From a gamma proteobacterium symbiont of Ctena orbiculata (lineage in GTDB: Bacteria; Pseudomonadota; Gammaproteobacteria; Chromatiales; Chromatiaceae), in the NCBI GenBank assembly GCA_003058495.1, contig QBVC01000008.1, forward strand, positions 19,164-83,163: DNA of 64,000 bases, given 5' to 3'. How positions within the stretch are numbered: the first letter of the stretch is position 1; each line of letters begins with the position of its first letter. The position numbers and the translations under genes are program-made. The notes below the pieces were generated by a model. The model worked only from the letters and a program-made list of their open reading frames with translations, was not told the DNA's origin and made no database searches. Shown piece after piece: positions 557 to 21,120 of the stretch.

Positions 557-3303
557 GCGAGATTAATCGTGCCGCACTGTTTGGGAAACTTAACAGCCTT
601 GGCTACAAGGCCATCGAAAGTGCGACCGTGTTCTGCAAAATGCGCGGCAATCCCTATGTCGAGCTGGTCCACTGGTTGCACCAGATACTGCAGCTGCAGG
701 ATTCCGACCTCCACCGCATCATCAAGCAGTTCAACCTGGACCCCTCCCACCTGGCGAAGGATATCACCGAAACCCTCGATGATCTGCCCCGCGGATCGAC
801 CTCGATCTCCGACCTCTCCTCCCATGTGGAGGAGGCCACCGAACGCGGCTGGGTCTACGGCACCCTGATGTTCGGTGACAGCCAGGTGCGCACCGGCTAT
901 CTGGTCATCGGCATCTTGAAGACCAACAGCCTGCGCAACGCCCTGCTGCGGATCTCCGATCAGTTCAAGAAGCTCAGTATCGACACCCTCACCGACCGTT
1001 TCAACGAGGTGGTCGAGGGCTCTCCCGAGCAGGCCCTGCGCTCCAGCGACGGCTTCCAGGTCGGTGGCGGCGCCGCACCCGGCGAGGCCAGCGACGCCAT
1101 CGCCCCGGCCCAGATGGGCAAGCAGCAGGCGCTGCAGCAGTTTTCCGTCGACCTCACCGAAAGGGCGCGAAATGGAGAGATCGACCCGATCGTCGGTCGC
1201 GACGAGGAGATCCGCCAGATTGTCGATATCCTGATGCGCAGGCGCCAGAACAACCCGATCCTCACCGGCGAGGCGGGTGTGGGCAAGACCGCGGTGGTGG
1301 AGGGTTTCGCCCTGCGCATCGCCCGCGGCGACGTCCCCCCCTCGCTGCAGGACGTCAACCTGCGGGTGCTCGATGTCGGCCTGCTGCAGGCCGGCGCCAG
1401 CATGAAGGGCGAGTTCGAAAATCGCCTCAAGCAGGTGATCGAAGAGGTCCAGTCCTCCGAGAAGCCGATCATCCTCTTCATCGACGAGGCCCATACCCTG
1501 ATCGGCGCCGGCGGCAGTGCCGGCACCGGAGACGCGGCCAACCTGTTGAAGCCCGCCCTCGCCCGCGGCACCCTGCGCACCCTGGCCGCCACGACCTGGG
1601 CGGAGTACAAGAAGTATATCGAGAAAGACCCGGCCCTCACCCGTCGCTTCCAGGTGGTTCAGGTGGATGAACCGGACGAGGATCGGGCGATCCGCATGAT
1701 GCGCGGGGTGGCCTCGACCCTGGAGGATCACCACCAGGTACAGATCCTCGACGAGGCCCTCGATGCCTCGGTCCGACTCTCACACCGCTATATCCCCGCC
1801 CGCCAGCTGCCGGACAAATCGGTCAGCCTGCTCGATACCACCTGTGCAAGGGTGGCCATCAGCCAGGCCGCCGTCCCCGCCGAGGTCGATGACAGTCAAC
1901 GCCGGATCGAGGCCCTGGAGACGGAACTGGAGATTATCGACCGGGAGAAGGCCATCGGCATGGACACCGATGAGCGCGAAAGCGCCGCCCGCGAGAGACT
2001 GGCCGAGGAGCGTGATCGCCTGGACCGGCTCAATGAGCGCTGGGAGACCGAAAAGGCGCTGGTGGAGGAGCTGTTGCAGATTCAACAGCGGCTGAAGGGA
2101 TTGAATGCCGGCGATGAAGCCGCGGCCGCCGAGGATGAAAGCGACGGGGAAGGCGTTGCGCAAAGCGAAAACGAGGCAGCCGATACGCCATCAACCCCCA
2201 GTCCAGAGCTGAGCGCGGAGGAGCTGGTGCCGCGCCTGGCCGAGCTCAAGTCGAAGTTGAGCGATCTCCAGGGCGAGAGCCCCCTGATCCTGCCCAGCGT
2301 GGATGCCCAGGCGGTCGCCTCCGTGGTCGGTGACTGGACCGGCATCCCCGTAGGGCGGATGGTGAAAAACGAGATCGAAACCATTCTCAACCTCAGCGAC
2401 ACCCTGGCGAAACGGGTGATCGGCCAGGACCATGCCCTGGAGATGATCGCCCGGCGCATCCAGACCTCGCGGGCCAACCTGGACAATCCCAACAAGCCGA
2501 TCGGCGTCTTCATGCTCTGCGGACCCTCCGGCGTGGGCAAGACCGAGACCGGGCTGACCCTGGCCGAATCCCTCTACGGGGGCGAGCAGAACGTCATCAC
2601 CATCAACATGAGCGAGTTTCAGGAGGCGCACACGGTCTCCACCCTGAAGGGGGCGCCTCCCGGCTATGTCGGCTACGGCGAGGGCGGCATATTGACCGAG
2701 GCGGTACGGCGCAAGCCCTACAGCGTGGTGCTGCTGGACGAGGTGGAGAAGGCCCATCCCGATGTGCACGAGATCTTCTTTCAGGTCTTCGACAAGGGCT
2801 GGATGGAGGATGGCGAGGGCCGCCATATCGACTTCAAGAACACCCTGATCCTGCTCACCTCAAACGTGGGCACGGAGATGATCGACAATCTCTGCAAGGA
2901 CCCGGAGCTGATGCCCGAGCCGGATGCCATCGCCGGCTCCCTGCGCGATCCGCTGCTGAAGGTCTTTCCCGCCGCCCTGCTCGGCAGGCTGGTGGTGATC
3001 CCCTACTATCCGTTGAGCGACGAGATCCTGGCCAGGGTGGTACGCCTGCAGTTGGGCCGCATCGAATCCCGCATAGAAGAGAACCACGGCATACCGCTCA
3101 GCTACGACGACAGTGTCGTGACCCTGATCATCGACCGCTGCACCGAGGTGGAGAGCGGTGCGCGCATGGTGGATGCCATCCTCACCAACACCCTGCTGCC
3201 GGAGATCAGCCGGCATGTATTGATCGAGAAGATGGAGTCGCGTCCGATTGGAAAAATCCACATCGGTGTGGAGAATGATGAATTCAGCTATAACTTTTCT
3301 TAA
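553..3303 (+). CDS. tssH: T6SS AAA+ ATPase ClpV/TssH
   Basis: 916 aa. N-terminus MSEINRAALFGKLN..GNPYVELVHW; two Walker A motifs (GEAGVGKT, GPSGVGKT); PPGYVGYGEGG; located in the T6SS cluster. Confidence 0.97.
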   Translation: MSEINRAALFGKLNSLGYKAIESATVFCKMRGNPYVELVHWLHQILQLQDSDLHRIIKQFNLDPSHLAKDITETLDDLPRGSTSISDLSSHVEEATERGWVYGTLMFGDSQVRTGYLVIGILKTNSLRNALLRISDQFKKLSIDTLTDRFNEVVEGSPEQALRSSDGFQVGGGAAPGEASDAIAPAQMGKQQALQQFSVDLTERARNGEIDPIVGRDEEIRQIVDILMRRRQNNPILTGEAGVGKTAVVEGFALRIARGDVPPSLQDVNLRVLDVGLLQAGASMKGEFENRLKQVIEEVQSSEKPIILFIDEAHTLIGAGGSAGTGDAANLLKPALARGTLRTLAATTWAEYKKYIEKDPALTRRFQVVQVDEPDEDRAIRMMRGVASTLEDHHQVQILDEALDASVRLSHRYIPARQLPDKSVSLLDTTCARVAISQAAVPAEVDDSQRRIEALETELEIIDREKAIGMDTDERESAARERLAEERDRLDRLNERWETEKALVEELLQIQQRLKGLNAGDEAAAAEDESDGEGVAQSENEAADTPSTPSPELSAEELVPRLAELKSKLSDLQGESPLILPSVDAQAVASVVGDWTGIPVGRMVKNEIETILNLSDTLAKRVIGQDHALEMIARRIQTSRANLDNPNKPIGVFMLCGPSGVGKTETGLTLAESLYGGEQNVITINMSEFQEAHTVSTLKGAPPGYVGYGEGGILTEAVRRKPYSVVLLDEVEKAHPDVHEIFFQVFDKGWMEDGEGRHIDFKNTLILLTSNVGTEMIDNLCKDPELMPEPDAIAGSLRDPLLKVFPAALLGRLVVIPYYPLSDEILARVVRLQLGRIESRIEENHGIPLSYDDSVVTLIIDRCTEVESGARMVDAILTNTLLPEISRHVLIEKMESRPIGKIHIGVENDEFSYNFS

Positions 3304-3333: not shown

Positions 3334-4839
3334 ATGAAGATCACCCTCACAGTCAACCAGGTTGCCGGGGCTCCCCCCGCGCAACCCATGACAGTGACTT
3401 TCGATGACCAGGGCGGCAGCATCGGCCGCAGGGGAGAGAACGACTGGGTGTTGCCCGATCCGGAGCGCTTCATATCGGGACGTCATGCGCTGATCGATTT
3501 CAGCGACGGCGCCTTCCATATAACCGATCTCAGCTCCAATGGGATCTTCATAAACCGCTCCGCCCAACCCATGGGCAAGAACAACCGCGTCGCCCTGCAT
3601 CATGGCGACAGCCTTACCATCGGCGACTACGAGATCGGCGTAGCGATCGAGGAACCGGTCAACCAGATCCTGCAAGGCAACAGCTTCGAGGGATTGGACG
3701 ATCCCTTTGCGAAGATGGTCGATGAGCAGGCGGGGCAGAAATTGGAGGGGGGATTCCCAGCCCCCTTGGAGCCTCAACCCGAGCCGTTGATCGATGAGGG
3801 CTACTCCCTGGAAGAGGCGGAGACACCCAGTCTTGAAACGGATGAATCATCCCCTGAAACAGGGGAGGCGGAAGGCCTGCCCTCACAGGCGGATCATGTC
3901 CCCGATCTGAATGCCTATTTCAACCAGCCGAGTCCGATCCCTGAGGATTGGGACCAGGAAGAAAACAGCCTGGTCCAGGGTGGCGGGCCAGAGGCAGCGC
4001 CACCCGCTGAACCTTTGCCGCCCCTCGATGATGTGCCTTTACCCGGCGCCCCCGAGCAGCCTGCGCTGATCCCTGATACGGAGCCGTCTGAAGAGCCGGC
4101 GCCCTTCGCCATCCAGGAACCGACGCCCACGGCGGAGCAACAACAGCCGGGCATGGCAACGGCTGCAGCGACCCAAATGCCCGCGGAGCCCCCTGCGGCT
4201 GCTGTCGCCTACTCGGGAGACGAGGCGGTCCTGCGCCGCACCTTGGCTGAAAGCATGGGGATAGACGAAAGCCACTTTGCCGATCTTCCGCTCACGACCC
4301 TGTTGCAGAACCTCGGCCAGGTGATGCGGGTCAGCGTCAGCGGAACCATGTCGATGCTGCGTGCAAGAGCGCAGATGAAGGGCGAGTTCCGCATGTCCCA
4401 GACCATGATCCAACCGGTCGAGAACAATCCGCTGAAGTTTTCCATCAATATCGAGGAGGCACTGCGCCATATCATCAATCCAAATCCCAGCAGCGGTTAC
4501 CTCTCTCCCCTCGCCGCGTTTGAGGAGGCCCACGAGGATATCGAGGCGCATATGCTGGCGGTCATGGTAGGCATGCAGGCCGCTTTGCATGCCGTTTTGC
4601 AACGCTTCAAACCAGAGATACTGGAACAACGTCTCGGCCAGCAGGCGCTGTTGGAAAAACTGCCGCTCTACCGCCAGGCCAAGACCTGGGAGCTGTTCAC
4701 GGAACTCTATAGCGAGATCGCCGACGAGGCCGAGGACGATTTTCATCAACTCTTCGGGCGTACCTTTTCCCAGGCCTATGAGGAACAGATCCGCCGCCTG
4801 GAGTCGCTGAAAGACCCCGCCCCCGGTTCACCCAACTGA
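3334..4839 (+). CDS. tagH: T6SS-associated FHA domain protein TagH/Fha
   Basis: N-terminal FHA domain (IGRRGENDWVLPDPERFISGRHA, DLSSNG), Pro/Glu-rich linker, C-terminal ENNPLKFS motif. Confidence 0.93.
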   Translation: MKITLTVNQVAGAPPAQPMTVTFDDQGGSIGRRGENDWVLPDPERFISGRHALIDFSDGAFHITDLSSNGIFINRSAQPMGKNNRVALHHGDSLTIGDYEIGVAIEEPVNQILQGNSFEGLDDPFAKMVDEQAGQKLEGGFPAPLEPQPEPLIDEGYSLEEAETPSLETDESSPETGEAEGLPSQADHVPDLNAYFNQPSPIPEDWDQEENSLVQGGGPEAAPPAEPLPPLDDVPLPGAPEQPALIPDTEPSEEPAPFAIQEPTPTAEQQQPGMATAAATQMPAEPPAAAVAYSGDEAVLRRTLAESMGIDESHFADLPLTTLLQNLGQVMRVSVSGTMSMLRARAQMKGEFRMSQTMIQPVENNPLKFSINIEEALRHIINPNPSSGYLSPLAAFEEAHEDIEAHMLAVMVGMQAALHAVLQRFKPEILEQRLGQQALLEKLPLYRQAKTWELFTELYSEIADEAEDDFHQLFGRTFSQAYEEQIRRLESLKDPAPGSPN

Positions 4840-4853
4840 CAGGAATCAAGCAG

Positions 4854-5312
4854 ATGAGAGCAAGCATAAGAAACCTACTGCATATCTTGGGACTTCTCTA
4901 CCTGTTATTGCTGATGGGCTGTTCCAGTGTCTCCACGATTACCGTGACCATGAGTGCCGCCAGCGGCGTCAATCCGGACATCAACAGCCGCCCCTCGCCC
5001 ATCGTTGCCCGCATCTATGAGTTGAAGTCGTTGAGCGTCTTCAACAATGCCGACTTCTTCAATCTTTTCGAACAGGACGTGGCCCTGCTGGGAGAAGAGA
5101 TGCTGATGCGTGATGAGCTCCACTTCCAGCCCGGCGAGGTGAAGATGCTGGAGCGGGATCTGCAACCCGATACACGCTATGTGGGTGTCATCGGCGCCTA
5201 CCGGGATATAGAGAATGCGGCATGGCGCCGCTCCATCGAGATCGACCTGCACGATGAAACAACCTTTGTGATAGAGTTTGGAAAGAACGGCATCGTGCTT
5301 CAGAAAAAGTAG
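4854..5312 (+). CDS. tssJ: T6SS outer-membrane lipoprotein TssJ
   Basis: Lipobox LLMGC; VNPDINSRPSPIVARIYELK and GVIGAYRDIENAAWR motifs; lies upstream of tssK. Confidence 0.92.
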   Translation: MRASIRNLLHILGLLYLLLLMGCSSVSTITVTMSAASGVNPDINSRPSPIVARIYELKSLSVFNNADFFNLFEQDVALLGEEMLMRDELHFQPGEVKMLERDLQPDTRYVGVIGAYRDIENAAWRRSIEIDLHDETTFVIEFGKNGIVLQKK

Positions 5313-5338
5313 CTAACTGATTATAAAGAGCCGAACAC

Positions 5339-6673
5339 ATGTCTTGGATGTCTAGGATCGTCTGGTCGGAGGGAATGTTCCTCAGACCGCACCATTTTCA
5401 GCAACAGGAGCGCTTCCTGGAGCATATGGTCGAGGCGCGCTGCGCCGATCTAATCCCATACAGTTGGGGCTTCACCCACCTTAAGATCGACAGGCAGGCA
5501 CTGGCCCTCGGCAGACTGGCCATCGAGTCCTGCCGCGGCGTACTCCCAGACGGCACAACCTTCGACATACCGGGCAACGACAATCCACCACCGCCGCTGG
5601 ATATCGGCGCTGACCACAAGGGCGACATCGTCTACCTCGCCCTGCCGCTGTCGCGCCAGGGTACCGCGAGTGTCCGCTTCGCCGATCAGGAAGAGGGCCT
5701 GGAGCGGTATATCGCCGAAGAGATCGAGATCAAGGACGGGATTGCCGGCTCGACAAACAGCTCCACCCTGCAGGTGGCGCAGCCGACGATGCGACTCTTG
5801 ATCGGTGACTCCGAACTGGAGGAGTTCGCCCATCTCGCGGTGGCCAAAATCGTCGAGCGCCGCTCCGACGACATGCTGGTATTGGATGAGGATTTTATTC
5901 CTCCCTGCCTCGACTGCCAGGTCTCTCCCCGGCTGGATGGCTATGTGAAGGAGATCGAGGGCCTGCTGCACCACCGCGCCGACGCCATCGCCTCACGCCT
6001 GGTCGACGGCGGCAAGGGCATCGCCGAGGTCGCCGATTTTCTGATGCTGCAGGTGGTGAACCGCTTCGAGCCGCTGTATACCCATTTCAGCGAGACGACA
6101 CCGCTGCACCCGATCTCGTTTTACCAGGCATCGCTGCAGCTTGCCGGGGAACTGGCCACCTTCACCAGCAGCAACAAGCGCCCCCCTGACTTTGCAATCT
6201 ATCAGCATCAGGAGCTGCAGTTGACCTTCATACCGCTGATGCGCGAACTGCGCCGTTCCCTGAGCATGGTTCTGGAACAGAAGGCGGTGGCGATACCCCT
6301 GGAAGAGCGAAAGTACGGCATCCGTGTCGCCGTGGTATCCGATCGTTCATTGCTCAGCGATGCGATATTCGTCCTCGCCGTGAATGCCAGTATGACGGCC
6401 GATGTGCTGCAACGCCGCTTTCCCAGCCAGACCAAGATCGGCCCGGTGGAAAAGATCCGCGATCTGGTGAACCTTCAGCTCCCCGGCATCGGCCTGCGTA
6501 TCCTCTCGGTGGCGCCAAGACAGATACCCTACAACGCGGGCTTCAGTTACTTCGAACTCGATAAGAACAACGAGTACTGGAACCTGCTTGAAACCTCGGG
6601 AGGATGTGCCATACATATAGGAGGCGACTTCCCTGGGCTGGAACTCGAACTCTGGGCAATAAAAGGTAGTTGA
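5339..6673 (+). CDS. tssK: T6SS baseplate subunit TssK
   Basis: 444 aa; WSEGMFLRPHHFQQQERF and APRQIPYNAGFSYFEL..LELELWAI motifs. Confidence 0.96.
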   Translation: MSWMSRIVWSEGMFLRPHHFQQQERFLEHMVEARCADLIPYSWGFTHLKIDRQALALGRLAIESCRGVLPDGTTFDIPGNDNPPPPLDIGADHKGDIVYLALPLSRQGTASVRFADQEEGLERYIAEEIEIKDGIAGSTNSSTLQVAQPTMRLLIGDSELEEFAHLAVAKIVERRSDDMLVLDEDFIPPCLDCQVSPRLDGYVKEIEGLLHHRADAIASRLVDGGKGIAEVADFLMLQVVNRFEPLYTHFSETTPLHPISFYQASLQLAGELATFTSSNKRPPDFAIYQHQELQLTFIPLMRELRRSLSMVLEQKAVAIPLEERKYGIRVAVVSDRSLLSDAIFVLAVNASMTADVLQRRFPSQTKIGPVEKIRDLVNLQLPGIGLRILSVAPRQIPYNAGFSYFELDKNNEYWNLLETSGGCAIHIGGDFPGLELELWAIKGS

Positions 6674-6675
6674 CC

Positions 6676-8001
6676 ATGGATCATGACGACCCATTTGGCA
6701 TGAAGCCCAACGACGCCGGCGACCGCACCGTGATCCGACCCCGCCCCGGCGGCAAGGGACCCGCTTCGCAACCCCAGTCACCGCCACAGCCCAGCCAACC
6801 GGCGCCGCCTCCGCAGCGCTCAGGTCCGGCCCCGAGGCTGCCGACCCGCCAGGGGGCGAACAAGCTGGAGATCGCCGCCACTGCCCTGCTCTCCCTGCTG
6901 GGCCGCCTGCGTGAAACCCCATCCCATCCCGATCCGGCTGCCTTGAAGAGCAGCATCATCGAGAAGATCCGGGGGTTCGAACGCAATGCACAGGACCTTG
7001 GCGTGGACAAGGAGACCATCTTCTGGACCCGCTACGTATTGTGTACCGCCCTCGACGAGACCGTACTCTCCACACCCTGGGGCAACCAGAGCCTATGGCG
7101 GGACCAGAGTCTTCTGGTGACCCTGCACAACGAGGCCTGGGGTGGTGAAAAGTTCTTCCAGCTGCTGCAGAAACTGCTGCAGAATCCGGCCAAGAACATC
7201 GAACTGCTTGAAGTCATGTATATCTGTCTCTCGTTTGGATTCGAGGGACGCTTCAAACCCCTGCCGGACGGTTACGCACAGCTGCAGACCCTGCGCGACA
7301 ACCTCTATCGCACCATCCGCAACCACCACGAAGAGTATGAGCGCGACCTCTCCGGCAACTGGCAGGGTGTCTACCTGAAGCAGAATGCCCTGGTGCAATA
7401 TGTTCCGCTCTGGGTCGTGTTGGCCGTTTCCGGTGTGATCCTGCTGTTGATGTATTCGGGTTTCAATCTCAGCCTGAACGTGAAATCGGATCCGGTGCAT
7501 GCCGAACTGCACAACATTGCACGCAATGTGAAAACCGTTGTCGAGCGCAAGCCGCCACCGGCACCGGAACCTGAACTGACGCTGCGCGTCCTGCTGGCGA
7601 ATGAGATAACCCAGGGCAGTGTCGACGTGGTGGAGGATTACAGCGAAGGCCGGGTGCGAATTGCCGGAGACGGTCTGTTCGCCTCGGGCAGCGGCGCCGT
7701 GAAGGCGCAGTTTCTACCGCTGCTGAGCAAGATCGCGGCCGCCATGGACCAGCTGCAGGGGGAGATTGTGGTCGAAGGCCATACCGATAACGTGCCGATA
7801 CGCAGCCTGCGCTTCCCCTCCAACTGGCACCTCTCCCGGGCCCGCGCCGAATCGGTGGCGAAGATAATGGCAAGCGACCTTGCCAGTCCGAGCCGCATCC
7901 AGAGCCTGGGCAGAGGCTCGGCGGAACCCTTGACCTCCAACAACACCAACGAGGGTCGAGCACGCAACCGGCGTGTGGAGATCACCCTGATAAAACCATA
8001 G
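6676..8001 (+). CDS. tssL: T6SS TssL/DotU with C-terminal OmpA-like peptidoglycan-binding domain
   Basis: RYVLCTALDETV, GGEKFF and CLSFGFEGRF DotU motifs, one TM segment, then GHTDNVP..NWHLSRARA..NRRVEI (OmpA). ATG at 6676 follows the tssK stop. Confidence 0.95.
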   Translation: MDHDDPFGMKPNDAGDRTVIRPRPGGKGPASQPQSPPQPSQPAPPPQRSGPAPRLPTRQGANKLEIAATALLSLLGRLRETPSHPDPAALKSSIIEKIRGFERNAQDLGVDKETIFWTRYVLCTALDETVLSTPWGNQSLWRDQSLLVTLHNEAWGGEKFFQLLQKLLQNPAKNIELLEVMYICLSFGFEGRFKPLPDGYAQLQTLRDNLYRTIRNHHEEYERDLSGNWQGVYLKQNALVQYVPLWVVLAVSGVILLLMYSGFNLSLNVKSDPVHAELHNIARNVKTVVERKPPPAPEPELTLRVLLANEITQGSVDVVEDYSEGRVRIAGDGLFASGSGAVKAQFLPLLSKIAAAMDQLQGEIVVEGHTDNVPIRSLRFPSNWHLSRARAESVAKIMASDLASPSRIQSLGRGSAEPLTSNNTNEGRARNRRVEITLIKP

Positions 8002-8011
8002 GCGTCGACGC

Positions 8012-11000
8012 ATGCGAGCAATAATGGGCATCATAAAAAATCGCTGGTTCGTTGCCATCCTGGGATTGATCGCCATCTCGATCATCATCTGGTTGGTGGG
8101 GCCTCTGATCGCCATTGCCGGCATTGAGCCCCTGGGCTCTGTGCTGGGACGCCTGATCGCCATTCTCCTGGTGGTGCTGATCTGGCTCGGCATGGAGCTG
8201 CGCCGTTTTCTCACCGCGCGCAAGAAAAACCAGCAGATGCTGGAGAGCGTGGTGGGGCAGAAGGATCAACCGCAAATTCACGCCCGCGAGTCCGACGAGG
8301 AGGTGGCGATTCTCAGCCAGCGTCTCGACGAGGCGATCCGGATCCTCAAGGAGTCGAAGATCGGCGGCAAACAGGATCGCCAATTCCTCTATCAACTCCC
8401 CTGGTATATGTTTATCGGTCCACCGGGCAGCGGCAAGACCACCGCCCTGCTCAACTCGGGTCTCCACTTCCCCCTGGCGGACAAGCTGGGTAACGATGCC
8501 GTCCAGGGCATCGGCGGCACCCGCAACTGCGACTGGTGGTTCACCGACGATGCGGTGCTGCTCGATACCGCGGGGCGCTACACCACCCAGGACAGCTACG
8601 AGGAGGTCGACCGGGCGGCCTGGATGGGATTCCTCGACCTGCTGAAACGGCATCGCAAGCGCAGGCCGATAAACGGCGCCCTGGTGGCGATCAGCGTGGA
8701 GGACATCCTGCAGCTCACCGAGCTGGAGCGTCTCAGTCACGCCAAGGCGATCCGCATGCGGGTCAAGGAGCTGATCGATCATTTCGGCATCCGCTTCCCC
8801 ATCTACATCCTGTTCACCAAATGCGATCTCCTGGCGGGATTCAATGAATTCTTCGAGAACATGGGGCGGGAGGAGCGCAGCCAGGTCTGGGGGATGACCT
8901 TCCCCCTCACCGACAAGGCCGACGAGGATGGCGGCATCAGCCGCTTCCAGGATGAGTTCAGGGCGCTCGAAAAGCGCATCGATGTGCGTCTCATGGATCG
9001 CCTGGAGCAGGAGCGGGACACCAAGCGCAGGATCCTGATCTACTCCTTCCCCCAGCAGTTCAGCGCCCTGCGCGAGGCGGCAGAGAGTTTTCTCTATGAG
9101 GCCTTCAGCGCCAACCGCTTTCAGGAGACCCCCATGGTGCGGGGTATCTACTTCACCAGCGGCACCCAGGAGGGTACCCCCATCGATCGGCTGCTCGGCT
9201 CCATGGCCCAGGAGTTCGGCCTCAACCGGCAGATCGCACCCGCCTTTTCCGGCAGCGGACGCAGCTTTTTCATCAACCGGCTGTTCAAGGACCTGATATT
9301 TCCCGAGGCCCATCTGGCCGGGGTAAACACCCGGGTCGAGAAGCGGCGCGCCTGGCTGCAGCGCATGGCCTATGTCGGCGCCATCTCTCTCGCCGTGCTG
9401 GCCGGGGTCGCCTGGTTCACCAGTTACAGCCGCAATCAGAGCTATATCGATCAGGTGGCGATACAGGCGAACGCCGCGGAAGAGAAGGTCAACGCCGTGG
9501 CGCCGGACGACCTGACCCTGGCCAACGTGGTGCCGGCCCTCGACTCGGTGCGCCGGATCCCCGGGGGCTACGCCGACCAGGAGGCCGAGATCCCCTGGCT
9601 GATGGGGCTGGGCCTCTATCAGGGCGACAAGCTCGGCAGCGAGGCCGTCAGCGCCTACCGCACCAGCCTGAAGAACCTGTTCCTGCCGCGCATCATCCTC
9701 AGCCTGGAAAACCAGCTCACCCGGCCGGGGAACAATCCCGACTATCTCTACGAGGCCCTCAAGGTCTACCTGATGTTCGACGACAGCGAGCATTTCGATG
9801 CCGAAACCGTCAAGACCTGGATGCTGCTGCAGTGGCAGCTGAACCTCCCCGGTGCCGAGAACGCCCAGGCAAGGCAGGCCCTGGCCGGTCATCTCGATGC
9901 GCTGCTGGAGATGTTGCCGATGACCCCGACCCTGCCCCTGGATCAGGACCTGATCGCCCATGTCCGCGGCAACCTGTTGCGGGTACCCCTGGCAGACCGG
10001 GTCTACAACCGCATGAAAAGGACCACCGCGAGCGGATCCGTACCGCCGATCCGGCTCACCCAGGCCATCGGCGCGGATGCCGACCAGGTATTCAGCCGCC
10101 GCTCCGGGGAACCCCTGGACAAGGAGATCCCCGCCCTTTTCACCTACGAGGGCTATCACAAACTGTTTCTCAAGGATCATCTCGAGATCGCCAACAAGCT
10201 GCTGGAGGAGAAGTGGATACTCGGCCCCGAACTGGAGAAGATCGTGGGCGAAACCGACCTGGTCAAGCTCAGCGCCCGGGTCAAGGAGCTCTACTACGAG
10301 GAGTATATCCGCACCTGGGAGCAACAACTGGCCGATATCCGGGTCAAGCCCTTCGCCAACATGCGCCAGGCGGTGGATATCCTCAATATCATCTCGGGTC
10401 CGAGCTCCCCCCTGCGGCGCTACCTGAAACTGGTACAGGAGCAGACCAGCCTCTCCCGTCTTCCCGGCGGCGCCAAGAAGGCCGCCGAACTGGTGGAGAG
10501 AAACACCTCGGGGATCACCCGCAGGCTCGCCTCCATCCTGCAGGTGGCCCCGGACGCTTCGGAGGCGGCCTCCGAGGACTCCCTGCTGACCACCCCGGTG
10601 GATCAGCATTTCGCCAGCCTGAACAGAATGATCCAGGCCCAGGAGGGTGAGCAGGCGCCGCTGGAAAGGACCATGGAGATGCTCAACGAACTCTACGCCC
10701 ATATGAGCTCCATCGCCTCTGCCGGCAATCAGTCCAACCAGGCCTTCAACGTGGCCCGGGATCCCTCCGCGGGGGGCAGTGTCATCAGCCGGCTCAAACT
10801 TGAGGCGAAACGCCAGCCGGGTCACTTGGCGGCGATGCTCAACACCCTGGCGGACGGCAGCTCCAATCTGACCATATCCGGGGTCAGGGCCCACCTGAAC
10901 TCGGTCTGGACCACCCAGGTCCTGCCCTTCTGTCAACGCAGCCTCACGGGGCGCTATCCCCTCGACCGCGACAGCAGCCGCGAGGTCACCATCGGCGACT

Positions 11001-11593
11001 TCGGACGCTTTTTCGGTCCCGGCGGCATGATGGACAACTTCTTCAACAGCTATCTGCAGGATTTTGTCGATACCTCCCGCCGCAGCTGGCGCTGGAACGC
11101 GGCGGGCAACCGCGCCCTCGGCATACCCACCGGCACCCTGAGGCAGTTCCAGCGGGCGGCGGTTATCCGCGACGCCTTCTTCAGCGGCTCCGCCCAGGAT
11201 CCGAAGATCAACTTCGAGGTCAAACCGCTGAGCATGGATACCACCATCACCCAGATCACCCTGCTGCTCAATCAGCAGCGCGTCAGGTATAACCACGGCC
11301 CCGCCCGCTGGAACCGTATGATCTGGCCCGACGACTCCGGGATCAGCGACACCAAGATCCTGTTGGCGCCTCCCGCCGGAAACAAGCCTTCCGGACTGAC
11401 CGAGGATGGTCCATGGGGCTGGTTCCGAATCATCGACCAGGCAAAGACCGAGGCCACCGACTCACCCGAGACCATTAAGGTCGAGTTCAACGTGGGCGGA
11501 CGCAAATCCCGTTTTATGTTGCGTGCCAGTGGCGCCCTCAATCCCTTCAAGCTCAAAGAATTGGCAGATTTCCGGTGTCCGAACAGACTCTGA
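8012..11593 (+). CDS. tssM: T6SS membrane subunit TssM/IcmF
   Basis: 1193 aa; N-terminal TMs, LPWYMFIGPPGSGKTT Walker A, GGTRNCDWWFT, DTAGRY, and GPWGWFR near the C-terminus. Confidence 0.97.
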   Translation: MRAIMGIIKNRWFVAILGLIAISIIIWLVGPLIAIAGIEPLGSVLGRLIAILLVVLIWLGMELRRFLTARKKNQQMLESVVGQKDQPQIHARESDEEVAILSQRLDEAIRILKESKIGGKQDRQFLYQLPWYMFIGPPGSGKTTALLNSGLHFPLADKLGNDAVQGIGGTRNCDWWFTDDAVLLDTAGRYTTQDSYEEVDRAAWMGFLDLLKRHRKRRPINGALVAISVEDILQLTELERLSHAKAIRMRVKELIDHFGIRFPIYILFTKCDLLAGFNEFFENMGREERSQVWGMTFPLTDKADEDGGISRFQDEFRALEKRIDVRLMDRLEQERDTKRRILIYSFPQQFSALREAAESFLYEAFSANRFQETPMVRGIYFTSGTQEGTPIDRLLGSMAQEFGLNRQIAPAFSGSGRSFFINRLFKDLIFPEAHLAGVNTRVEKRRAWLQRMAYVGAISLAVLAGVAWFTSYSRNQSYIDQVAIQANAAEEKVNAVAPDDLTLANVVPALDSVRRIPGGYADQEAEIPWLMGLGLYQGDKLGSEAVSAYRTSLKNLFLPRIILSLENQLTRPGNNPDYLYEALKVYLMFDDSEHFDAETVKTWMLLQWQLNLPGAENAQARQALAGHLDALLEMLPMTPTLPLDQDLIAHVRGNLLRVPLADRVYNRMKRTTASGSVPPIRLTQAIGADADQVFSRRSGEPLDKEIPALFTYEGYHKLFLKDHLEIANKLLEEKWILGPELEKIVGETDLVKLSARVKELYYEEYIRTWEQQLADIRVKPFANMRQAVDILNIISGPSSPLRRYLKLVQEQTSLSRLPGGAKKAAELVERNTSGITRRLASILQVAPDASEAASEDSLLTTPVDQHFASLNRMIQAQEGEQAPLERTMEMLNELYAHMSSIASAGNQSNQAFNVARDPSAGGSVISRLKLEAKRQPGHLAAMLNTLADGSSNLTISGVRAHLNSVWTTQVLPFCQRSLTGRYPLDRDSSREVTIGDFGRFFGPGGMMDNFFNSYLQDFVDTSRRSWRWNAAGNRALGIPTGTLRQFQRAAVIRDAFFSGSAQDPKINFEVKPLSMDTTITQITLLLNQQRVRYNHGPARWNRMIWPDDSGISDTKILLAPPAGNKPSGLTEDGPWGWFRIIDQAKTEATDSPETIKVEFNVGGRKSRFMLRASGALNPFKLKELADFRCPNRL

Positions 11594-12375
11594 ACAGCAC
11601 ATTGAACGAGGATGTCCCCGGGTTCTACGGCAAGATACCCTCCCTCGGGGATTTCGTAACGAGACGCCTGCCGCGCGGGTTTATCGCGCCCTGGGAGACC
11701 TGGATGCAGGAGGCGATAGCCAACAGCCGCGAACAGCTTGGTGATTTCTGGCTGGACAACTATCTCACCAGCCCCCTGTGGCGATTTGCCCTCACCCCCG
11801 GGATCTGCGGAGAACACGGCTGGGCGGGCGTGCTGATGCCGAGCGTCGACCGGGTCGGACGCTACTATCCCTTTACCCTGGCGGCGAGGCTCGATCCGAA
11901 ATTCAATCTCTTCCTCTTCATGGAGGAGTCCGAGCCCTGGTTTGCCAGGATGGAGGAGCTCGCGCTCTCCTGCCTTGAAGACGGCTTCCAGATGGAGTCG
12001 TTCGAGCAGCAGCTGCGCGCTGTCGGTCTGCCCAGTGCCGAACGCGAACCCCACCCGCCGCAACCGGAGGCCGCGACCACGGCACTCAACAACGCCTGGC
12101 ACGCCAAACTGGAGGAGCAGTCATCCCTGCGCAGCATCTATCCGCTGTTCCTTCCCCATCTGATGAAGAAGCTGCTCTTCGCCTACAGCCTCTGGTGGAC
12201 CCAGGGATCCGAGCGCATCTCGCCCTCTCTGCTGCTGTGCCAGGGTCTGCCCCAGATCAAGGGCGCCAGCGCCTTGATCGACGGCGCCTGGAGCCAGCAC
12301 GGCTGGGAGGAGATCGAAACCGGGACCTACGCACTGGGGGGGTTGTCCAATATCGAAGCCTCGCAGTCTCAATGA
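11575..12375 (+). CDS. tagF: T6SS-associated protein TagF
   Basis: GFYGKIPSLGDFV and LMPSVDRVGRYYPFT motifs. Start uncertain (GTG 11575 or TTG 11602). Confidence 0.92.
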   Translation: MSEQTLNSTLNEDVPGFYGKIPSLGDFVTRRLPRGFIAPWETWMQEAIANSREQLGDFWLDNYLTSPLWRFALTPGICGEHGWAGVLMPSVDRVGRYYPFTLAARLDPKFNLFLFMEESEPWFARMEELALSCLEDGFQMESFEQQLRAVGLPSAEREPHPPQPEAATTALNNAWHAKLEEQSSLRSIYPLFLPHLMKKLLFAYSLWWTQGSERISPSLLLCQGLPQIKGASALIDGAWSQHGWEEIETGTYALGGLSNIEASQSQ

Positions 12376-13127
12376 GCCTCAACAGCTTCTACTGGGTCTC
12401 GGCGCACATGAGCGACAAGGGAAAGGTGCGCTCAATCAACGAAGACGCCTGTCTCGATCGGGCCGACCTGGGGATCTGGGCGGTGGCTGACGGCATGGGC
12501 GGGCATGCCGCCGGCGACATGGCCTCGGAAATGATCGTCAATGAGCTCAAATCGATCACTCCGGGGGATTCGCTGGGGGCGCTGGCCAGCGATGTGGAGC
12601 AGCGGCTGCAGCATGTCAACCAGCAGCTGCTGCTTGAGTCGCAGCGACGCGGTGGCGAGATCATCGGGTCCACCGTGGTCACCCTGCTCACCTACCAGGG
12701 CTACTGTATCTACCAATGGGCGGGAGACAGCCGGATCTACCTCTACCGCCGCGGCAGACTCAAACAACTCAGCCGCGACCACAGCCAGTTGGAAGAGCTG
12801 ATCGAACAGGGTCTGGTCACCCTGGACCAGGCGGAACAATCCCCGATCGCCAACTACATCACCCGCGCCGTGGGCGCCAGTGAGGAGTTGGAGCTGGATG
12901 CGGAGATCTTCGAGCCTTGCGACAGCGACCTGTTCCTGCTCTGCAGCGACGGCCTGAACAAGGAGGTCAGCGACGGGGAGATTGCCGAGATCCTGGGCGG
13001 CTACAGCTTTCAGCAAGCGGCGCAACAGCTGATCCAGCTGGCGATGGAGCGCGGCGCACGGGACAACGTAACCCTGGTACTGGTGCAGGCGAGTTCGACC
13101 CAGGCAAACGGGCCTGAACAGGAATGA
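12372..13127 (+). CDS. pppA: PP2C-family Ser/Thr phosphatase (PppA/TagG-like)
   Basis: GKVRSINEDA, VADGMGGH, AGDSR, LLCSDGL and GARDNVT PP2C motifs; ATG 12372 overlaps the tagF stop (ATGA). Confidence 0.9.
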   Translation: MSLNSFYWVSAHMSDKGKVRSINEDACLDRADLGIWAVADGMGGHAAGDMASEMIVNELKSITPGDSLGALASDVEQRLQHVNQQLLLESQRRGGEIIGSTVVTLLTYQGYCIYQWAGDSRIYLYRRGRLKQLSRDHSQLEELIEQGLVTLDQAEQSPIANYITRAVGASEELELDAEIFEPCDSDLFLLCSDGLNKEVSDGEIAEILGGYSFQQAAQQLIQLAMERGARDNVTLVLVQASSTQANGPEQE

Positions 13128-13167
13128 TCTGCTATATTGGCTTACAAACTACCGATAGGACGGCAGT

Positions 13168-14568
13168 ATGCTGGAATCTAACATGTTCACCATGAGACAT
13201 AACGTTGTGAAACCGGGCCGCGAGAACATAGAAGATTTCACCAAACTCCTCCTCATCACCCTGTTGGCAATAAGCATCTCCGCCTGTGTTGCCCTGGGAC
13301 CGCAGCAGGAACCGGAACCGGTCGATGCGGAGGAACCAGAGGAGGAGGTAGTGACCATTCCTCCGCCGCCTGACTCACTGACCCCTTCACAGCGGGTACG
13401 CAAGGCGCTGCAGCAGTTGGAGCAGGGCGACTACGGGAACGCCCGGTTGCAACTCACCTGGGCATTACAGGAGAAGCCCACATTGCAGATCGCCGCCAAT
13501 CTGCTGCAACAGATGGATGTCGATCCCATCGACCATCTCGGCATGAAGAGTTTCTTCTACGATGTGGAGCCGGGTGACTCGCTCTCCATAATCGCCAAAA
13601 AATTCCTCAACGATCCGCTAAAGTTTGTCGTTCTGGCCCGCTACAACAAACTGGAGAATCCCAGCAAACTGGCCCCGGGTCAGCGTATCCGCGTGCCAGG
13701 TGTGATGCCGGAGAGAAAAAGAGCAAAACCCAAGCCAAAGCCACAACGATCAGAACCTGTTGCCCTGCCGCAAGCGTCCGTCGAAGCAACACCACCCCCT
13801 GCCACCACTGCCGAGCAGACAGCCTTGACGGCCGAGCCCGTGATGGAAGAGAGCGAGCCAGAACCGACCCAATCACCCGCCATGGAGGCAATCCCCATGG
13901 CAGCTACGGAGGTGACCGAGGAGCCGCCGCAACAGCAAGCGGAACAGCCTGTCGAAGAGGCGCCGGTAGCGATGACCGTCGAGGAGGCGCTCAGCTCTGC
14001 GCGAGGCCTGCATGGAGAAGGAAACCTCAGCGCGGCGATCTATCTGCTGGAAAACGAGAGCAGCCAGCATCCCGATTCAAAGGAGCTGCAGAAACTGCTT
14101 GCCGATTATTACAATGAGCATGCAGATCAACTCATCAACCGGGGCGAGCTGAACGATGCGCGGACAACCTTGGAAAAACTGATCATCCTTGACTCATCCG
14201 ATGATCAAGCGATCAATAAACTGATCCTGGTAGAGGACAGTATCGAGGCAGGAAAATTAATGCTGGCCGCACAGGATCAGCAAAACGCAGGCAACCTGGA
14301 ACAGGCCTACCAGACCTATGGTCAAGTCCTCACCTACGACCCGGAGAACCAAATCGCGAAGGATTCGCGACTGGTTGTCCGCGATCAGCTGACTGACAGC
14401 TATCATCGCCGCGCCATGCAGCTTTTCAGAAAGCAGGAGCTGGATGATGCGATTGGATTCTGGAACAAGATCCTGGAGTTGAATCCGAACCACTCCCTGG
14501 CCCCGGGTTACAAGGCACGGGCGTTGGAGATGAAACAGCAGCTGCAGAAGATCGAACCCGGCGGATGA
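13168..14568 (+). CDS. LysM and TPR domain lipoprotein
   Basis: Hydrophobic signal ending ISAC; LysM (YDVEPGDSLSIIAKKFL..NKLENPSKLAPGQRIRVP); Pro/Glu-rich linker; C-terminal TPR-like helices (AIGFWNKILELNPNH). Start may be 13183 or 13192. Confidence 0.8.
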   Translation: MLESNMFTMRHNVVKPGRENIEDFTKLLLITLLAISISACVALGPQQEPEPVDAEEPEEEVVTIPPPPDSLTPSQRVRKALQQLEQGDYGNARLQLTWALQEKPTLQIAANLLQQMDVDPIDHLGMKSFFYDVEPGDSLSIIAKKFLNDPLKFVVLARYNKLENPSKLAPGQRIRVPGVMPERKRAKPKPKPQRSEPVALPQASVEATPPPATTAEQTALTAEPVMEESEPEPTQSPAMEAIPMAATEVTEEPPQQQAEQPVEEAPVAMTVEEALSSARGLHGEGNLSAAIYLLENESSQHPDSKELQKLLADYYNEHADQLINRGELNDARTTLEKLIILDSSDDQAINKLILVEDSIEAGKLMLAAQDQQNAGNLEQAYQTYGQVLTYDPENQIAKDSRLVVRDQLTDSYHRRAMQLFRKQELDDAIGFWNKILELNPNHSLAPGYKARALEMKQQLQKIEPGG

Positions 14569-15009
14569 TATCGCCTTCTCTGTAATTACACGCCAAGCCA
14601 GTCACACATCGGTCAACCCTGGCTGGAAAACCGGTTACTACAACGTAAGCCTGTTCGATATCAACGACAATCAAAGACTCGTGGCAAGCAGTCGTTATCT
14701 CATTGACAGTGTAAGTGAGACTGAGAGTCAGGCATCGCAGGTAGACCGGGATGTCATTCACAACCTCATTTCCAATGGGCTTGCCATATCCAAGCCATAC
14801 TGAAATACCACTTTAATTCATAATTCATGCTGGCAATAATTCCACATGTTTTCGTCAAAGGTTGATATTTGGTAGCGCGATATCAGCGTCTTTCTTGGCT
14901 ATACGGTGATCACAATGCAGTTACGATTTTGAGCGTTATAGTTGCCTCTCCCCCCCAAAGAAGTTATATAACCTGTTGGTCCATATGCAACGATATGATG
15001 GTGGGTTAT

Positions 15010-15393
15010 ATGCTCAAATCACTGTTCAAGCAATTCCTGATATACCTTCTCTCCCTAAACATGGCAATCATCGGCTTTCCCGCCATTTCGCTAGCGGCTC
15101 CAATAGATACCATGACCGTCATCCAGCTGGATGACAGGCAAAAGAGTATCGACCAAATCCGTTCAACCATGGCCCGTGACGAGGTTCGCAGTTCCTTGCT
15201 GGAAATGGGCGTCGATCCTCAGGCAGTTGAACTACGCCTGGATGCGCTCACTGACCATGAGCTGTATGTACTCAATCAACAAATAGATGAACTGCCTGCC
15301 GGCGGCAGCGTCCTGGGTGTACTCGGCGCACTACTGATCGTGCTAATCGTATTGGAACTGCTGGGCGTCACTAATGTATTCACCAAGCTTTAA
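15010..15393 (+). CDS. PA2779-family protein
   Basis: Signal-like N-terminus, LLEMGVDPQAVELRLDALTDHEL, LPAGG plus C-terminal TM; directly upstream of a PA2778-like peptidase. ATG 15010 preferred over the ORF-track start. Confidence 0.8.
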   Translation: MLKSLFKQFLIYLLSLNMAIIGFPAISLAAPIDTMTVIQLDDRQKSIDQIRSTMARDEVRSSLLEMGVDPQAVELRLDALTDHELYVLNQQIDELPAGGSVLGVLGALLIVLIVLELLGVTNVFTKL

Positions 15394-15446
15394 GTCTGGA
15401 TGATATCAGCTGGGTTAAGGACCGACCCACTGATATTCAATCCGCA

Positions 15447-16463
15447 TTGAACGCGATCCCGGGCAAACCGAACGAGGTGGCCAAGCCATACCTCGCTTCG
15501 TTACTGTTATTGCTGCTTAGTGGTTGCGCAAGTCATCCACCCCTACTCTCTCCTTTGCTCCCCTCGGCGTCAACGCATGCCATGCTGGAGTTGGAGGCCA
15601 CCCCGTTCCATGCGCAAGAGAAGTATCAGTGCGGTCCGGCGGCTCTCGCCACCCTGCTTGAAGATTCAGGGGTTCCGGTGACTGCCGAATCCCTGGTGCC
15701 GCTGGTCTACCTGCCGGAGAAAAAGGGCAGCCTTCAAATGGAGATGGTGGCGGTCAGCCGTCGTTACCAGCGGATCCCCTACGTTATCAGACCCGATCTG
15801 AACTCACTGCTCGCGGAGTTGCAGGCAGGCCGACCCGTGCTGGTGCTGCAGAACCTCGGATTCACCCAATTCCCTGTCTGGCACTACGCGGTGGTGATCG
15901 GCTACTCGGCAGAGAGGGATGAGATGATCCTGCGTTCCGGGGTCACCCGACGCGAGGTCCTCGACGCGCATCGCTTTCTCGCTACCTGGAAACAGTCGGG
16001 CCACTGGGCCATGGTGCTGCTGAGACCCGGTGATTTACCCGCTGTGCCAGACCAGCTGCCCTACTTGAAGGCAGTGGCCGCCATGGAACGATCGGCCCCC
16101 GCCGAGCACCTCATCGCGGCTTACCGTGCAGCCCTGGATCATTGGCCGGAGAGTGCAATCGCAATGTTCGGTTTGGCGGTCGCCCAGCACGCCAAGGGGG
16201 ACCTGGCGGCGGCTGAACTGAACTATAGGAGGCTCCTGGAGGCAGCGCCTGACTTTATCGCAGCCCACAACAACCTGGCCGAGGTATTGGCCGACAGGGG
16301 TTGCTATAGCGAGGCCAGGGCAGTGATTCAACAGGCATTGCAGAAAGAGAGCGGCGCCTTGCAGCAGGAGCTGAGGCAAACTGAACACGAAATCGTGAGA
16401 AGAATAAACAATCATCCGTCACAACCCTCTCCCTGCCGACGGCCGAGGATTCCGCATGAATAG
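15447..16463 (+). CDS. PA2778-family C39-like cysteine peptidase lipoprotein with TPR
   Basis: Lipobox LSGC, catalytic QCGPAALA (Cys) and WHYAVVIGY (His), C-terminal TPR (AHNNLAEVL). Alternative start GTG 15477. Confidence 0.85.
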   Translation: MNAIPGKPNEVAKPYLASLLLLLLSGCASHPPLLSPLLPSASTHAMLELEATPFHAQEKYQCGPAALATLLEDSGVPVTAESLVPLVYLPEKKGSLQMEMVAVSRRYQRIPYVIRPDLNSLLAELQAGRPVLVLQNLGFTQFPVWHYAVVIGYSAERDEMILRSGVTRREVLDAHRFLATWKQSGHWAMVLLRPGDLPAVPDQLPYLKAVAAMERSAPAEHLIAAYRAALDHWPESAIAMFGLAVAQHAKGDLAAAELNYRRLLEAAPDFIAAHNNLAEVLADRGCYSEARAVIQQALQKESGALQQELRQTEHEIVRRINNHPSQPSPCRRPRIPHE

Positions 16464-17096
16464 ATGATCTCTTCAAATACCCGCGAGAAGAGTGACCCAT
16501 GAGTCGTGGATCTCCCGCTATCCAGTTGCCGAATTTGACGGAGAAAAAACCCAGTTAAATCCTATGTTTCTGACATAAAATCGAACATGTCAACTTGATG
16601 GATTGGTTGTCTCGTCTACTATTGATCTGTAATATGGCGGGCAAGAATTAGCAGTAGCATGCCAAACGGATCGATTGGCTAAGTTTTGTGGTTTTTTTAC
16701 CACTAAGATGATGGATCATCATCGACATCGGGGCTGTCAAGCATAGGTTAAAACCTCACTGCAACCGATTTATACCTTGGGTAGTACCTGCAGATATCCC
16801 TGTCTCATGCAGCGGAGAGATACGGTACTGCTTGAATACAATGGAACAATAGGGAACTACAGCATTGCCGGGAAAGACAATGGCACAATGGATACCACTC
16901 TGTGACAGCGCTGCTGCCCAGCTGCCGTCAACCAATCACACCCTATCAGCGATTTGCATCCCTGGGCGCATTTGTCCATCAAATCGCCGACAGGATCCCA
17001 AAAAACTCAGGATATATTGCTTTCGATCAATGATCTAGTTAATTAAACATGGAAGATTACGCCGCATGGACATAATTGAACAAAGCATAATAATTC

Positions 17097-17840: not shown

Positions 17841-17897
17841 CCTCGAAATAGGATTGCTGAATGGTTTTTGAACCGACTGGACTCGTCTCAACAGGCC

Positions 17898-18671: not shown

Positions 18672-18886
18672 TTAGCTCCTCTAATTCCTATTTGAGTAAT
18701 ATTATTCCTCTATTGCCTTCAAATAAAGGCTTTCCGCTCAAGAACATACCCCCAGTGCCACTATAGAGTTTGATGATCGACAGACTCAATCAGAGGTACT
18801 CAAGATTGTTACCGTCAGGATCCCTACAAGCAGCAGTTGCCGCCATAAACAGAACAAGCAGGAAGCCAAATCCTTCATCCGATGAC

Positions 18887-19114: not shown

Positions 19115-19126
19115 AGCGGGTTCGGT

Positions 19127-21036: not shown

Positions 21037-21120
21037 TGAGGTATACCTCGGCATTTGCGGTTGCAAACCTCCTGTATTGACAACTCCCAGGTTCCTTTCA
21101 TTGAAGATGCCAACAGACAA

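Follow-up and report, generated by a model that had tools for sequence, protein, structure and literature searches.

A type VI secretion locus of a lucinid clam symbiont in which a LysM-TPR lipoprotein and a Cache-HAMP kinase may take the place of the usual PpkA sensor arm

The triggers of type VI secretion system (T6SS) firing are known in few models, namely Pseudomonas (TagQRST), Serratia (RtkS) and Acidovorax (TssW). In a 2026 review of T6SS accessory genes, TagQRST is listed only for Pseudomonas H1 and Rhodobacter, and in Serratia RtkS replaces TagQRST (PMC13584744). We analyzed a 64,000-nucleotide stretch of DNA, hereafter the window (G000:C12:19164-83163; G, C and L denote our genomes, contigs and loci), from Candidatus Thiodiazotropha, a genus of chemosynthetic symbionts in lucinid clams. 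T6SS genes are reported to be ubiquitous in the Ca. Thiodiazotropha pangenome (PMC12278820), and hcp is within the top-100 expressed genes inside the host, the supplement naming hcp alone (PMC13137333). The window contains a T6SS locus that shares the fha-tssJ-K-L-M-tagF-pppA block, and its order, with the H1-T6SS of P. aeruginosa. In the latter, pppA is followed by the kinase gene ppkA and tagQRST, whereas the window has neither. Here, a gene for a LysM-TPR lipoprotein follows pppA, and an operon convergent with the T6SS operon encodes, 6.5 kb downstream, a Hanks Ser/Thr kinase with Cache and HAMP domains. Judging from gene content and conservation, we slightly favor the view that this kinase is the functional PpkA of the T6SS, with the LysM-TPR protein as its envelope partner and the CE4 deacetylase and TPR lipoproteins of the kinase operon as accessories.

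Genes in the window were called from an open reading frame (ORF) listing together with Pfam and NCBIfam scans (Table 1). These scans upheld the fha-tssJ-K-L-M-tagF-PP2C order on the plus strand that an initial annotation of this DNA had proposed, as well as its claim that the phospho-switch is retained. The phosphothreonine (pThr)-binding residues GR...SxxH...NG are present in Fha, the PP2C catalytic motifs DGMGGH, SDG and DN are intact in PppA, and TagF matches P. aeruginosa PA0076 (2qnu) with E = 7e-43. The Fha residues and the PppA motifs are kept across ~30 species. The pppA gene in fact begins with the ATG at 12372 and shares an ATGA overlap with the tagF stop. A single TssM and a single TagH were found genome-wide, indicating that the genome has one T6SS. 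Since TagJ, Fha, TagF and PppA are all present and TagF matches PA0076, we regard the cluster as H1-like, and from its gene content it may well be gated after translation via the threonine-phosphorylation pathway.

The initial annotation had also stated that no ppkA-tagQRST block follows pppA; genome-wide kinase and FGE-sulfatase searches confirmed this and found no such block elsewhere in the locus. A Pkinase search of all contigs detected six Hanks kinases above the Pfam cut-off, with none from tssA through the LysM-TPR gene, none up to 19 kb in the window and none in the 19 kb upstream of it; the window locus thus lacks a Hanks kinase gene after pppA or beside fha, the position expected of PpkA/TagE in the threonine-phosphorylation pathway. 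We rejected a ppkA with Pseudomonas architecture elsewhere in the genome, as neither a vWA nor an FGE-sulfatase domain occurs in the five of the six kinases that were scanned with Pfam. We likewise rejected a TagR gene in the vicinity of the T6SS or of a kinase, because the 11 FGE-sulfatase matches in the genome all lie on contigs C6, C9, C24 and C49, none of which bears a Hanks kinase or a T6SS. No FGE-sulfatase or ABC component was present among the annotated ORFs of C12:1-43 kb; TagQ, for which there is no model, was not searched for. The same annotation had taken the TagQRST arm as general canon, a view that the list in PMC13584744 contradicts, and because TagQRST is restricted to such systems, its absence here is normal. 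The location of the kinase gene also varies: when 20 T6SS loci of other genera in the family were compared, ppkA lay after pppA in six and divergent from fha in five, and therefore kinase position is fluid in this family.

The LysM-TPR protein is an outer-membrane-type lipoprotein in which a lipobox Cys (ISAC) precedes a helical N-domain, one LysM domain, a ~120-amino-acid Pro/Glu-rich spacer and a TPR C-domain. Alignment of homologues showed that the C-domain terminates in an invariant HxLAPGY. As first annotated, the gene begins 40 bp after the PP2C gene on the same strand if the ATG at 13168 is used (AGGA 9 nucleotides upstream); with the start at 13183, as used by homologues, the gap is 55 bp. 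In a consensus scan, the junction matched neither promoters nor terminators, and the LysM-TPR stop coincided with a weak hairpin (14560-14575). We scanned GTDB species representatives with the LysM-TPR alignment, which yielded 57 loci, and mapped synteny by tblastn. The LysM-TPR gene followed pppA on the same strand in 30/30 species-representative loci with tagF-pppA upstream, so that the conservation the initial annotation had called for comparing in relatives is complete in this set; the gaps were 44-372 bp when based on high-scoring segment pairs and 0-66 bp between called genes. Approximately 100 cluster-level homologues of the protein were found, nearly all in Thiodiazotropha and relatives. 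A stop-free frame at 14569-14803 (+) lies directly after the LysM-TPR stop (…WKTGYYNVSLFDINDNQRLV…KPY); it lacks a convincing start codon and, among relatives, is kept in the closest one alone (L038, at 82% identity of the DNA). It may be what is left of a gene.

The kinase comprises, in order, an N-terminal kinase domain, a first transmembrane (TM) segment at residues 295-320, a periplasmic sCache_3_2-like domain of ~130 amino acids, a second TM segment at about 447-489, a cytoplasmic HAMP domain and an acidic tail that terminates in DDATRIMPP. The kinase motifs HRDVKPGN, DFG and GTPQYMSPE are intact. The CE4 polysaccharide/peptidoglycan deacetylase encoded next in the operon has the metal-binding motifs TIDDG and HSxxH, and its relatives in the PDB are deacetylases of the IcaB/PgaB type; Pfam detected no LysM-like N-domain in this protein, and we do not claim one. 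The final gene, for a TPR lipoprotein, overlaps the deacetylase gene by 4 nucleotides and is co-conserved with the kinase. Divergent from the kinase gene is a conserved gene for a cytoplasmic protein, which adjoins the kinase gene in every T6SS-linked locus whose flank is long enough and stands directly after the LysM-TPR gene in the Sedimenticola metagenome-assembled genome (MAG) L068. This protein gave no Pfam or NCBIfam match. Its AlphaFold2 model (predicted local distance difference test score 78; one of five models good) had a best Foldseek match in the PDB at E = 0.34 with a TM-score of <0.2, and no function was assigned.

The association between the two operons extends beyond the window. 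The convergent TPR-deacetylase-kinase operon was found within 10 kb in 13/18 loci with full downstream flank. At L056, the deacetylase gene of the operon reaches the locus end, so the kinase gene is probably just beyond, and in L044, L054, L058 and L061 the kinase gene lies 22-35 kb downstream on the same contig and in the same orientation. In the distant lineages L012, L016 and L063, with LysM-TPR proteins ~44% identical to that of the window, the operon abuts the LysM-TPR gene with a gap of 40-90 bp. The spacer ranges from 0.1 to 35 kb across relatives and varies in content too; abutting operons were probably the ancestral state, with the spacer later becoming an insertion site. The alphaproteobacterial MAG L071 has tssL-tssM-tagF-pppA-kinase-deacetylase, in that order, and a convergent LysM-TPR gene, which places a Cache-HAMP kinase in the canonical ppkA slot; this kinase is 42% identical to the window kinase over residues 3-526 and has an sCache_3_2 domain (30.2 bits) and a HAMP domain. 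We sampled 81 genomes of the family, each from a different genus, and found full-length kinase orthologues in three (G000, G009 and G056), which are the same three with full-length LysM-TPR proteins, and all three are TagF-positive. For the sensor half of the kinase, about 70 homologues were found in the same taxa as the LysM-TPR homologues, and the contigs that bear the two are often equal in length.

The pair is also present where no T6SS is encoded nearby. In seven species of Thioalkalivibrio and in Halothiobacillus, the LysM-TPR gene is convergent with a Cache-HAMP kinase gene whose product shows 37-41% full-length identity, including the sensor, and a different PP2C gene lies upstream; Lysobacterales and L072 have the same convergent pair without an adjacent PP2C gene. 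We found no T6SS genes near the cassette loci of Thioalkalivibrio, Halothiobacillus, Lysobacterales or L072, and no TssM in the five cassette genomes searched. We count the pair in 15 loci that lack tagF upstream and in at least 13 that are T6SS-linked. The LysM-TPR and kinase genes of the cassette are convergent neighbors, while in the window the pair is split by 4.6 kb. The kinase-TM-Cache-TM-HAMP architecture was upheld in L079 (Thioalkalivibrio sp. AKL19) and L071, and the sensor-half family comprises from ~50 clusters (E <= 1e-30) to ~300 clusters (E <= 1e-10) at 50% identity, most of them starting at residue 285-300 and thus with the same kinase-first architecture. By its gene neighborhoods, the LysM-TPR/Cache-HAMP kinase pair is a putative independent signaling cassette in free-living sulfur oxidizers. 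L079 also has, at 8067-9017 ahead of the PP2C gene, a gene for a 316-amino-acid protein with a weak dCache_1 match; from its place beside the PP2C gene, the stand-alone module may have a fourth component.

Phylogenetic trees separated the history of the phosphatase from that of the kinase. In the PP2C tree, the window PppA and all LysM-type PppAs formed one clade (100/99), nested at 97/94 in T6SS PppAs from clusters with ordinary ppkA genes, and the cassette PP2Cs formed a separate clade (100/97). Arrival of pppA with the cassette, by recombination at the PP2C gene, was rejected by this tree, as pppA is of the T6SS type. In the kinase-domain tree, the window kinase, the L071 kinase and all LysM-type T6SS kinases grouped together (95/94), and the window kinase fell near the cassette kinases and outside the three T6SS-adjacent PpkA clades of sister genera. 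Its identity to the PpkAs of sister genera is 29-39%, compared with 44-51% to Cache-HAMP kinases of other groups. The window kinase, with two TM segments, Cache and HAMP, also departs from the PpkA/TagE architecture, in which a lone TM segment leads into a periplasmic C-terminal domain; in the PpkAs of relatives, TPR and FGE-sulfatase domains come after this single segment. The two long PpkAs that were scanned, of G040 (L018:11321-15934) and G010 (L028:5210-8662), are encoded after pppA and comprise 1150-1540 amino acids. Long periplasmic TPR/helical repeats in them precede an FGE-sulfatase domain at the C-terminus, so that the kinase is fused to a domain of the TagR type; L020 has a short PpkA of 408 amino acids in the same slot. 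A PppA inside the T6SS clade and a kinase outside the PpkA clades form the pattern expected from non-orthologous kinase displacement. The trees are read most simply as vertical inheritance of the T6SS backbone with displacement of its sensor kinase by the LysM-TPR/Cache-HAMP pair. The proposal in the initial annotation that the sensor arm had been replaced thus holds for the exchange of the usual kinase and sensor, which the PppA and kinase trees indicate, but a kinase is not missing, as one is encoded 6.5 kb downstream.

A threonine motif links the T6SS-associated kinases to TssL by resemblance. Most T6SS-linked Cache-HAMP kinases, those of L071 and L015 among them, carry the sequence D-[DE]-x-T-R-[IVL] in a C-tail that varies in other respects, and relaxed forms occur in a few distant copies (DEPTRIL in L016; DPTRVV in L012 and L063). 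The motif is also found in N-terminal or juxtamembrane regions of T6SS-adjacent PpkAs in relatives. It was not found in the T6SS-free cassette kinases, and Thioalkalivibrio has GDRTQEL. The kinase-tail motif resembles one at the TssL N-terminus, which is invariant as DDPF...GDRTVIRPxPGG in all relatives and reads DDPF...GDRTVIRPRPGG in the window. In Agrobacterium, PpkA phosphorylates the N-terminal Thr14 of TssL, which is then bound by Fha (PMC3953482). By analogy, we infer that the kinase-tail and TssL motifs are putative docking sites for the FHA domain.

These observations can be assembled into a working model. The usual kinase would have been displaced in the Thiodiazotropha lineage by a portable envelope-signaling pair, such that LysM-TPR now closes the fha-pppA operon and the kinase travels with the CE4 deacetylase, the TPR lipoprotein and the small cytoplasmic protein. 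The LysM domain would bind N-acetylated glycan (peptidoglycan), and the TPR end of the lipoprotein would convey the state of the cell wall to the periplasmic domain of the kinase, as TagQ/TagR, RtkS and TssW act on PpkA. The CE4 enzyme may edit the N-acetyl groups seen by LysM; since LysM recognizes N-acetylated glycan, a dedicated deacetylase could tune its ligand. Once activated, the kinase would autophosphorylate its DDATRI tail and phosphorylate TssL (at GDRTVIRP) and/or Fha, after which docking of the Fha FHA domain on phosphothreonine would trigger assembly. PppA would reverse the phosphorylation, and TagF would repress independently. The replacement suggests that this T6SS answers a different, probably cell-wall-related, signal, and the different activating signal put forward in the initial annotation is a reasonable proposal. 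More tentatively, the cassette may stand in place of a TagR-domain PpkA, with LysM-TPR reading peptidoglycan N-acetylation or integrity, or periplasmic N-acetylglucosamine oligomers, together with the Cache-HAMP kinase, and with CE4 tuning the ligand.

Several observations weigh against assigning the Cache-HAMP kinase to the T6SS. The sCache_3_2 domain (PF17203) of the window kinase scores 27.6 bits against a cut-off of 28.4, although orthologues exceed the cut-off, and the predicted HAMP domain is placed after the sensor without an output domain, which is mechanistically unexplained. The 4.6 kb between the two operons in the window hold unrelated genes, and adjacency inside one genus could be plain inherited synteny. 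The cassette works without a T6SS elsewhere, and its primary role may be cell-envelope homeostasis. A second kinase of the genome adds to these points. This protein, of 488 amino acids (contig C37:5342-6808, outside the window), is much shorter than its PpkA clade-mates; it grouped at 100/100 with the PpkAs encoded after pppA in four sister genera (L018, L019, L022 and L037; 44-54% identity) and bears DDGATRIS in its N-terminus. Its orthologues occur in 11 of the 81 family genomes, all TagF-positive; in most of these, the gene shares a contig with fha and lies 7-22 kb upstream of it. Contig C37 is colinear with the left flank of the T6SS in G081, G083 and G009, which puts the kinase, by synteny, roughly at least 13 kb to the left of vgrG. 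By its clade, its motif and its confinement to TagF-positive genomes, the C37 kinase could be a true or parallel Fha/TssL kinase. We nevertheless consider it unlikely that it is the kinase of this T6SS, with the Cache-HAMP operon an unrelated envelope-signaling neighbor and LysM-TPR belonging to that unit or only loosely coupled to the T6SS. Kinases of the C37 type coexist with a canonical ppkA in G015, G040, G043, G058 and G063 and thus look additional, not like occupants of a lost slot. In G091 such a kinase is on a different contig, and in G085 none was found, while both genomes have the LysM-type T6SS and the Cache-HAMP kinase. Such a role would also leave unexplained the fixation of LysM-TPR at the end of the fha-pppA operon and the Cache-HAMP kinase in the ppkA slot of L071.

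Two further explanations do without a sensing role for the pair. LysM-TPR could be a structural accessory outside the sensing arm, serving the membrane complex as a peptidoglycan anchor or spacer like TagL, TagN or TagP. The protein combines a LysM domain, a long Pro/Glu spacer and a lipid anchor, its gene is the last of the operon that encodes the membrane complex TssJLM, and peptidoglycan-binding accessories are common in T6SS loci (PMC13584744). TssL has an OmpA domain of its own, however, and so a compensating anchor is unneeded; the accessory has LysM where the TagL/TagN type has OmpA, and TssL is of the long form (PF00691 / TIGR03350). As the kinase is, moreover, the most constant partner of LysM-TPR across phyla, T6SS-free genomes included, we regard a purely structural role as quite unlikely. 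Alternatively, the switch might be independent of any kinase, with Fha a mere scaffold, as in systems in which it functions in the absence of PpkA, and TagF and PppA relics or acting by protein binding. No kinase gene lies inside the operon, and TagF is reported to repress via Fha without phosphorylation (PMC5995506). Conservation of the PppA and Fha residues across ~30 species, the invariant threonine motif of TssL and the presence of two kinases with FHA-type threonine motifs flanking the locus make this improbable. Signaling through the LysM-TPR/Cache-HAMP pair therefore remains the reading that we favor.

Table 1. Features of the T6SS locus and the convergent kinase operon (positions in the window)
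Feature	Position	Strand	Evidence
tssG, 3' part (start lies upstream of the window)	2-556	+	PF06996 / TIGR03347
clpV / tssH	553-3303	+	TIGR03345, 1276 bits
fha / tagH, FHA scaffold	3334-4839	+	PF00498 + PF20232; TIGR03354, 338 bits
tssJ lipoprotein	4854-5312	+	PF12790 / TIGR03352
tssK	5339-6673	+	PF05936 / TIGR03353
tssL, long form ("evolved"), own OmpA peptidoglycan-binding domain	6670-8001	+	PF09850 + PF00691; TIGR03350
tssM	8012-11593	+	TIGR03348, 1326 bits
tagF, switch repressor	11575-12375	+	PF09867 / TIGR03373
pppA, PP2C phosphatase	12372-13127 (ORF 12195-13127)	+	PF13672 / NF033484
LysM-TPR lipoprotein, outer-membrane type, 466 amino acids	13168-14568	+	PF01476 + TPR families
Variable spacer between convergent operons	14569-19126		PA2779/PA2778 (C39 peptidase) pair, TauE, FAA-hydrolase gene
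TPR lipoprotein (lipobox LGSGC), final gene in kinase operon	19127-20053	-	TPR families
CE4 polysaccharide/peptidoglycan deacetylase lipoprotein (lipobox FTAC)	20050-21120	-	PF01522
Hanks Ser/Thr kinase	21121-22908	-	PF00069, PF17203, PF00672; TM scan
Cytoplasmic protein, conserved, divergent from kinase gene	23131-23922	+	co-conserved with module

The contig extends 19 kb beyond the window on its upstream side and there holds, on the plus strand, genes for a VipA/B-like protein, tssA, tssB, tssC, hcp, tagJ (ImpE), tssE and tssF and, on the minus strand, DUF2169, DUF922, a PAAR-C39-like effector and vgrG. The gene immediately ahead of tssA (C12:9893-11332, L017) encodes the VipA/B-like protein, which has 479 amino acids and weakly matches VipA and VipB N-terminal models, and regular tssB and tssC genes are also present. 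The PAAR protein with a C39-like peptidase domain (C12:6330-7358, L017), encoded downstream of vgrG, is a likely T6SS effector, and the small genes after it may encode immunity proteins. In the spacer of the window, the pair at 14869-16463 (+) encodes a small membrane protein of the PA2779 family and a C39 cysteine peptidase/TPR lipoprotein of the PA2778 family; Ca. T. endoloripes and more distant relatives lack the pair at this site. In another Thiodiazotropha species (G083:C1:839500-856000; L101, L102), the spacer holds an auxiliary hcp-vgrG-DUF2169 module and a 1107-amino-acid Hanks kinase with TPRs, and in L015 vgrG-Rhs follows the kinase operon. On contig C34 (65000-71200, L096), a gene for an extracytoplasmic function (ECF) sigma factor (PF07638) lies between two Hanks kinase genes, for proteins of 338 and 696 amino acids; the kinase tree places the larger one as sister to a PpkA clade. 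Xanthomonas ECF/kinase pairs control T6SS transcription, and the C34 arrangement resembles these.

The locus adds to the few models in which triggers are known a conserved and phylogenetically supported wholesale swap of the kinase/sensor arm for a cell-wall-binding module. If the more tentative reading of the cassette given above is true, the symbionts would fire their sole T6SS on cell-wall attack or host glycan cues, not on membrane damage, and in Thioalkalivibrio, Halothiobacillus and Lysobacterales other outputs would be under the control of this cassette. As this locus type is widespread in Thiodiazotropha and hcp is highly expressed in the host, the input signal bears on competition and interaction of lucinid symbionts during colonization. 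The DDATRIMP and GDRTVIRP peptides and the candidate protein pairs are concrete and testable. We found no LysM-TPR accessory and no Cache-HAMP PpkA in the review of T6SS accessory factors or in literature searches, and in the Thiodiazotropha papers mention of T6SS was confined to T6SS genes and hcp expression. A T6SS phosphorylation pathway with an alternative upstream sensor is a known class; this module and its T6SS-free cassette appear to be undescribed.

Compared with P. aeruginosa H1, the cluster is further alike in the position of tagJ (ImpE) between hcp and tssE. The two are also alike in logic, in that an outer-membrane lipoprotein and an inner-membrane kinase would act on the FHA scaffold with reversal by PP2C. 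They differ in gene arrangement, the fha operon being co-directional with tssA-clpV in the window and divergent from it in P. aeruginosa H1. The H1 kinase has one TM segment and a periplasmic C-terminal domain, against two TM segments, Cache and HAMP in the window kinase. Unlike that of H1, the window kinase shares a convergent operon with a CE4 deacetylase and a TPR lipoprotein, and the lipoprotein partner is LysM-TPR. The RtkS-PpkA-PppA-Fha pathway of Serratia marcescens is a precedent for a T6SS without TagQRST in which another envelope or periplasmic protein activates the kinase (PMC13584744). RtkS is not a LysM-TPR lipoprotein, however, and the Serratia ppkA remains in the cluster with standard PpkA architecture. 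In the PpkA-TssL(pThr14)-Fha pathway of Agrobacterium tumefaciens, an N-terminal Thr of TssL serves as target and dock, to which GDRTVIRP of the window TssL and DDATRIMP of the kinase tail are similar. The Thr14 region is conserved only among Rhizobiaceae according to PMC3953482, and its equivalence with the window motif is inferred, not aligned.

Other accessories encoded in T6SS loci offer likenesses on the cell-wall side. TagL, TagN and TagP likewise bind the cell wall, but they use OmpA/Pal/MotB domains and offset a TssL without such a domain, whereas the accessory in the window has LysM and TPR domains and co-varies with a kinase, and TssL has OmpA. TssW of Acidovorax citrulli is an outer-membrane accessory from the T6SS cluster; it binds both PpkA and TssM and determines whether the machine assembles, and at which place (PMC12607579). 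The tssW gene lies between ppkA and fha, and the PpkA there is single-TM; the TssW paper leaves LysM unmentioned and mentions peptidoglycan once (PMC12607579). Likened by function, TssW is the closest analogy to the LysM-TPR lipoprotein.

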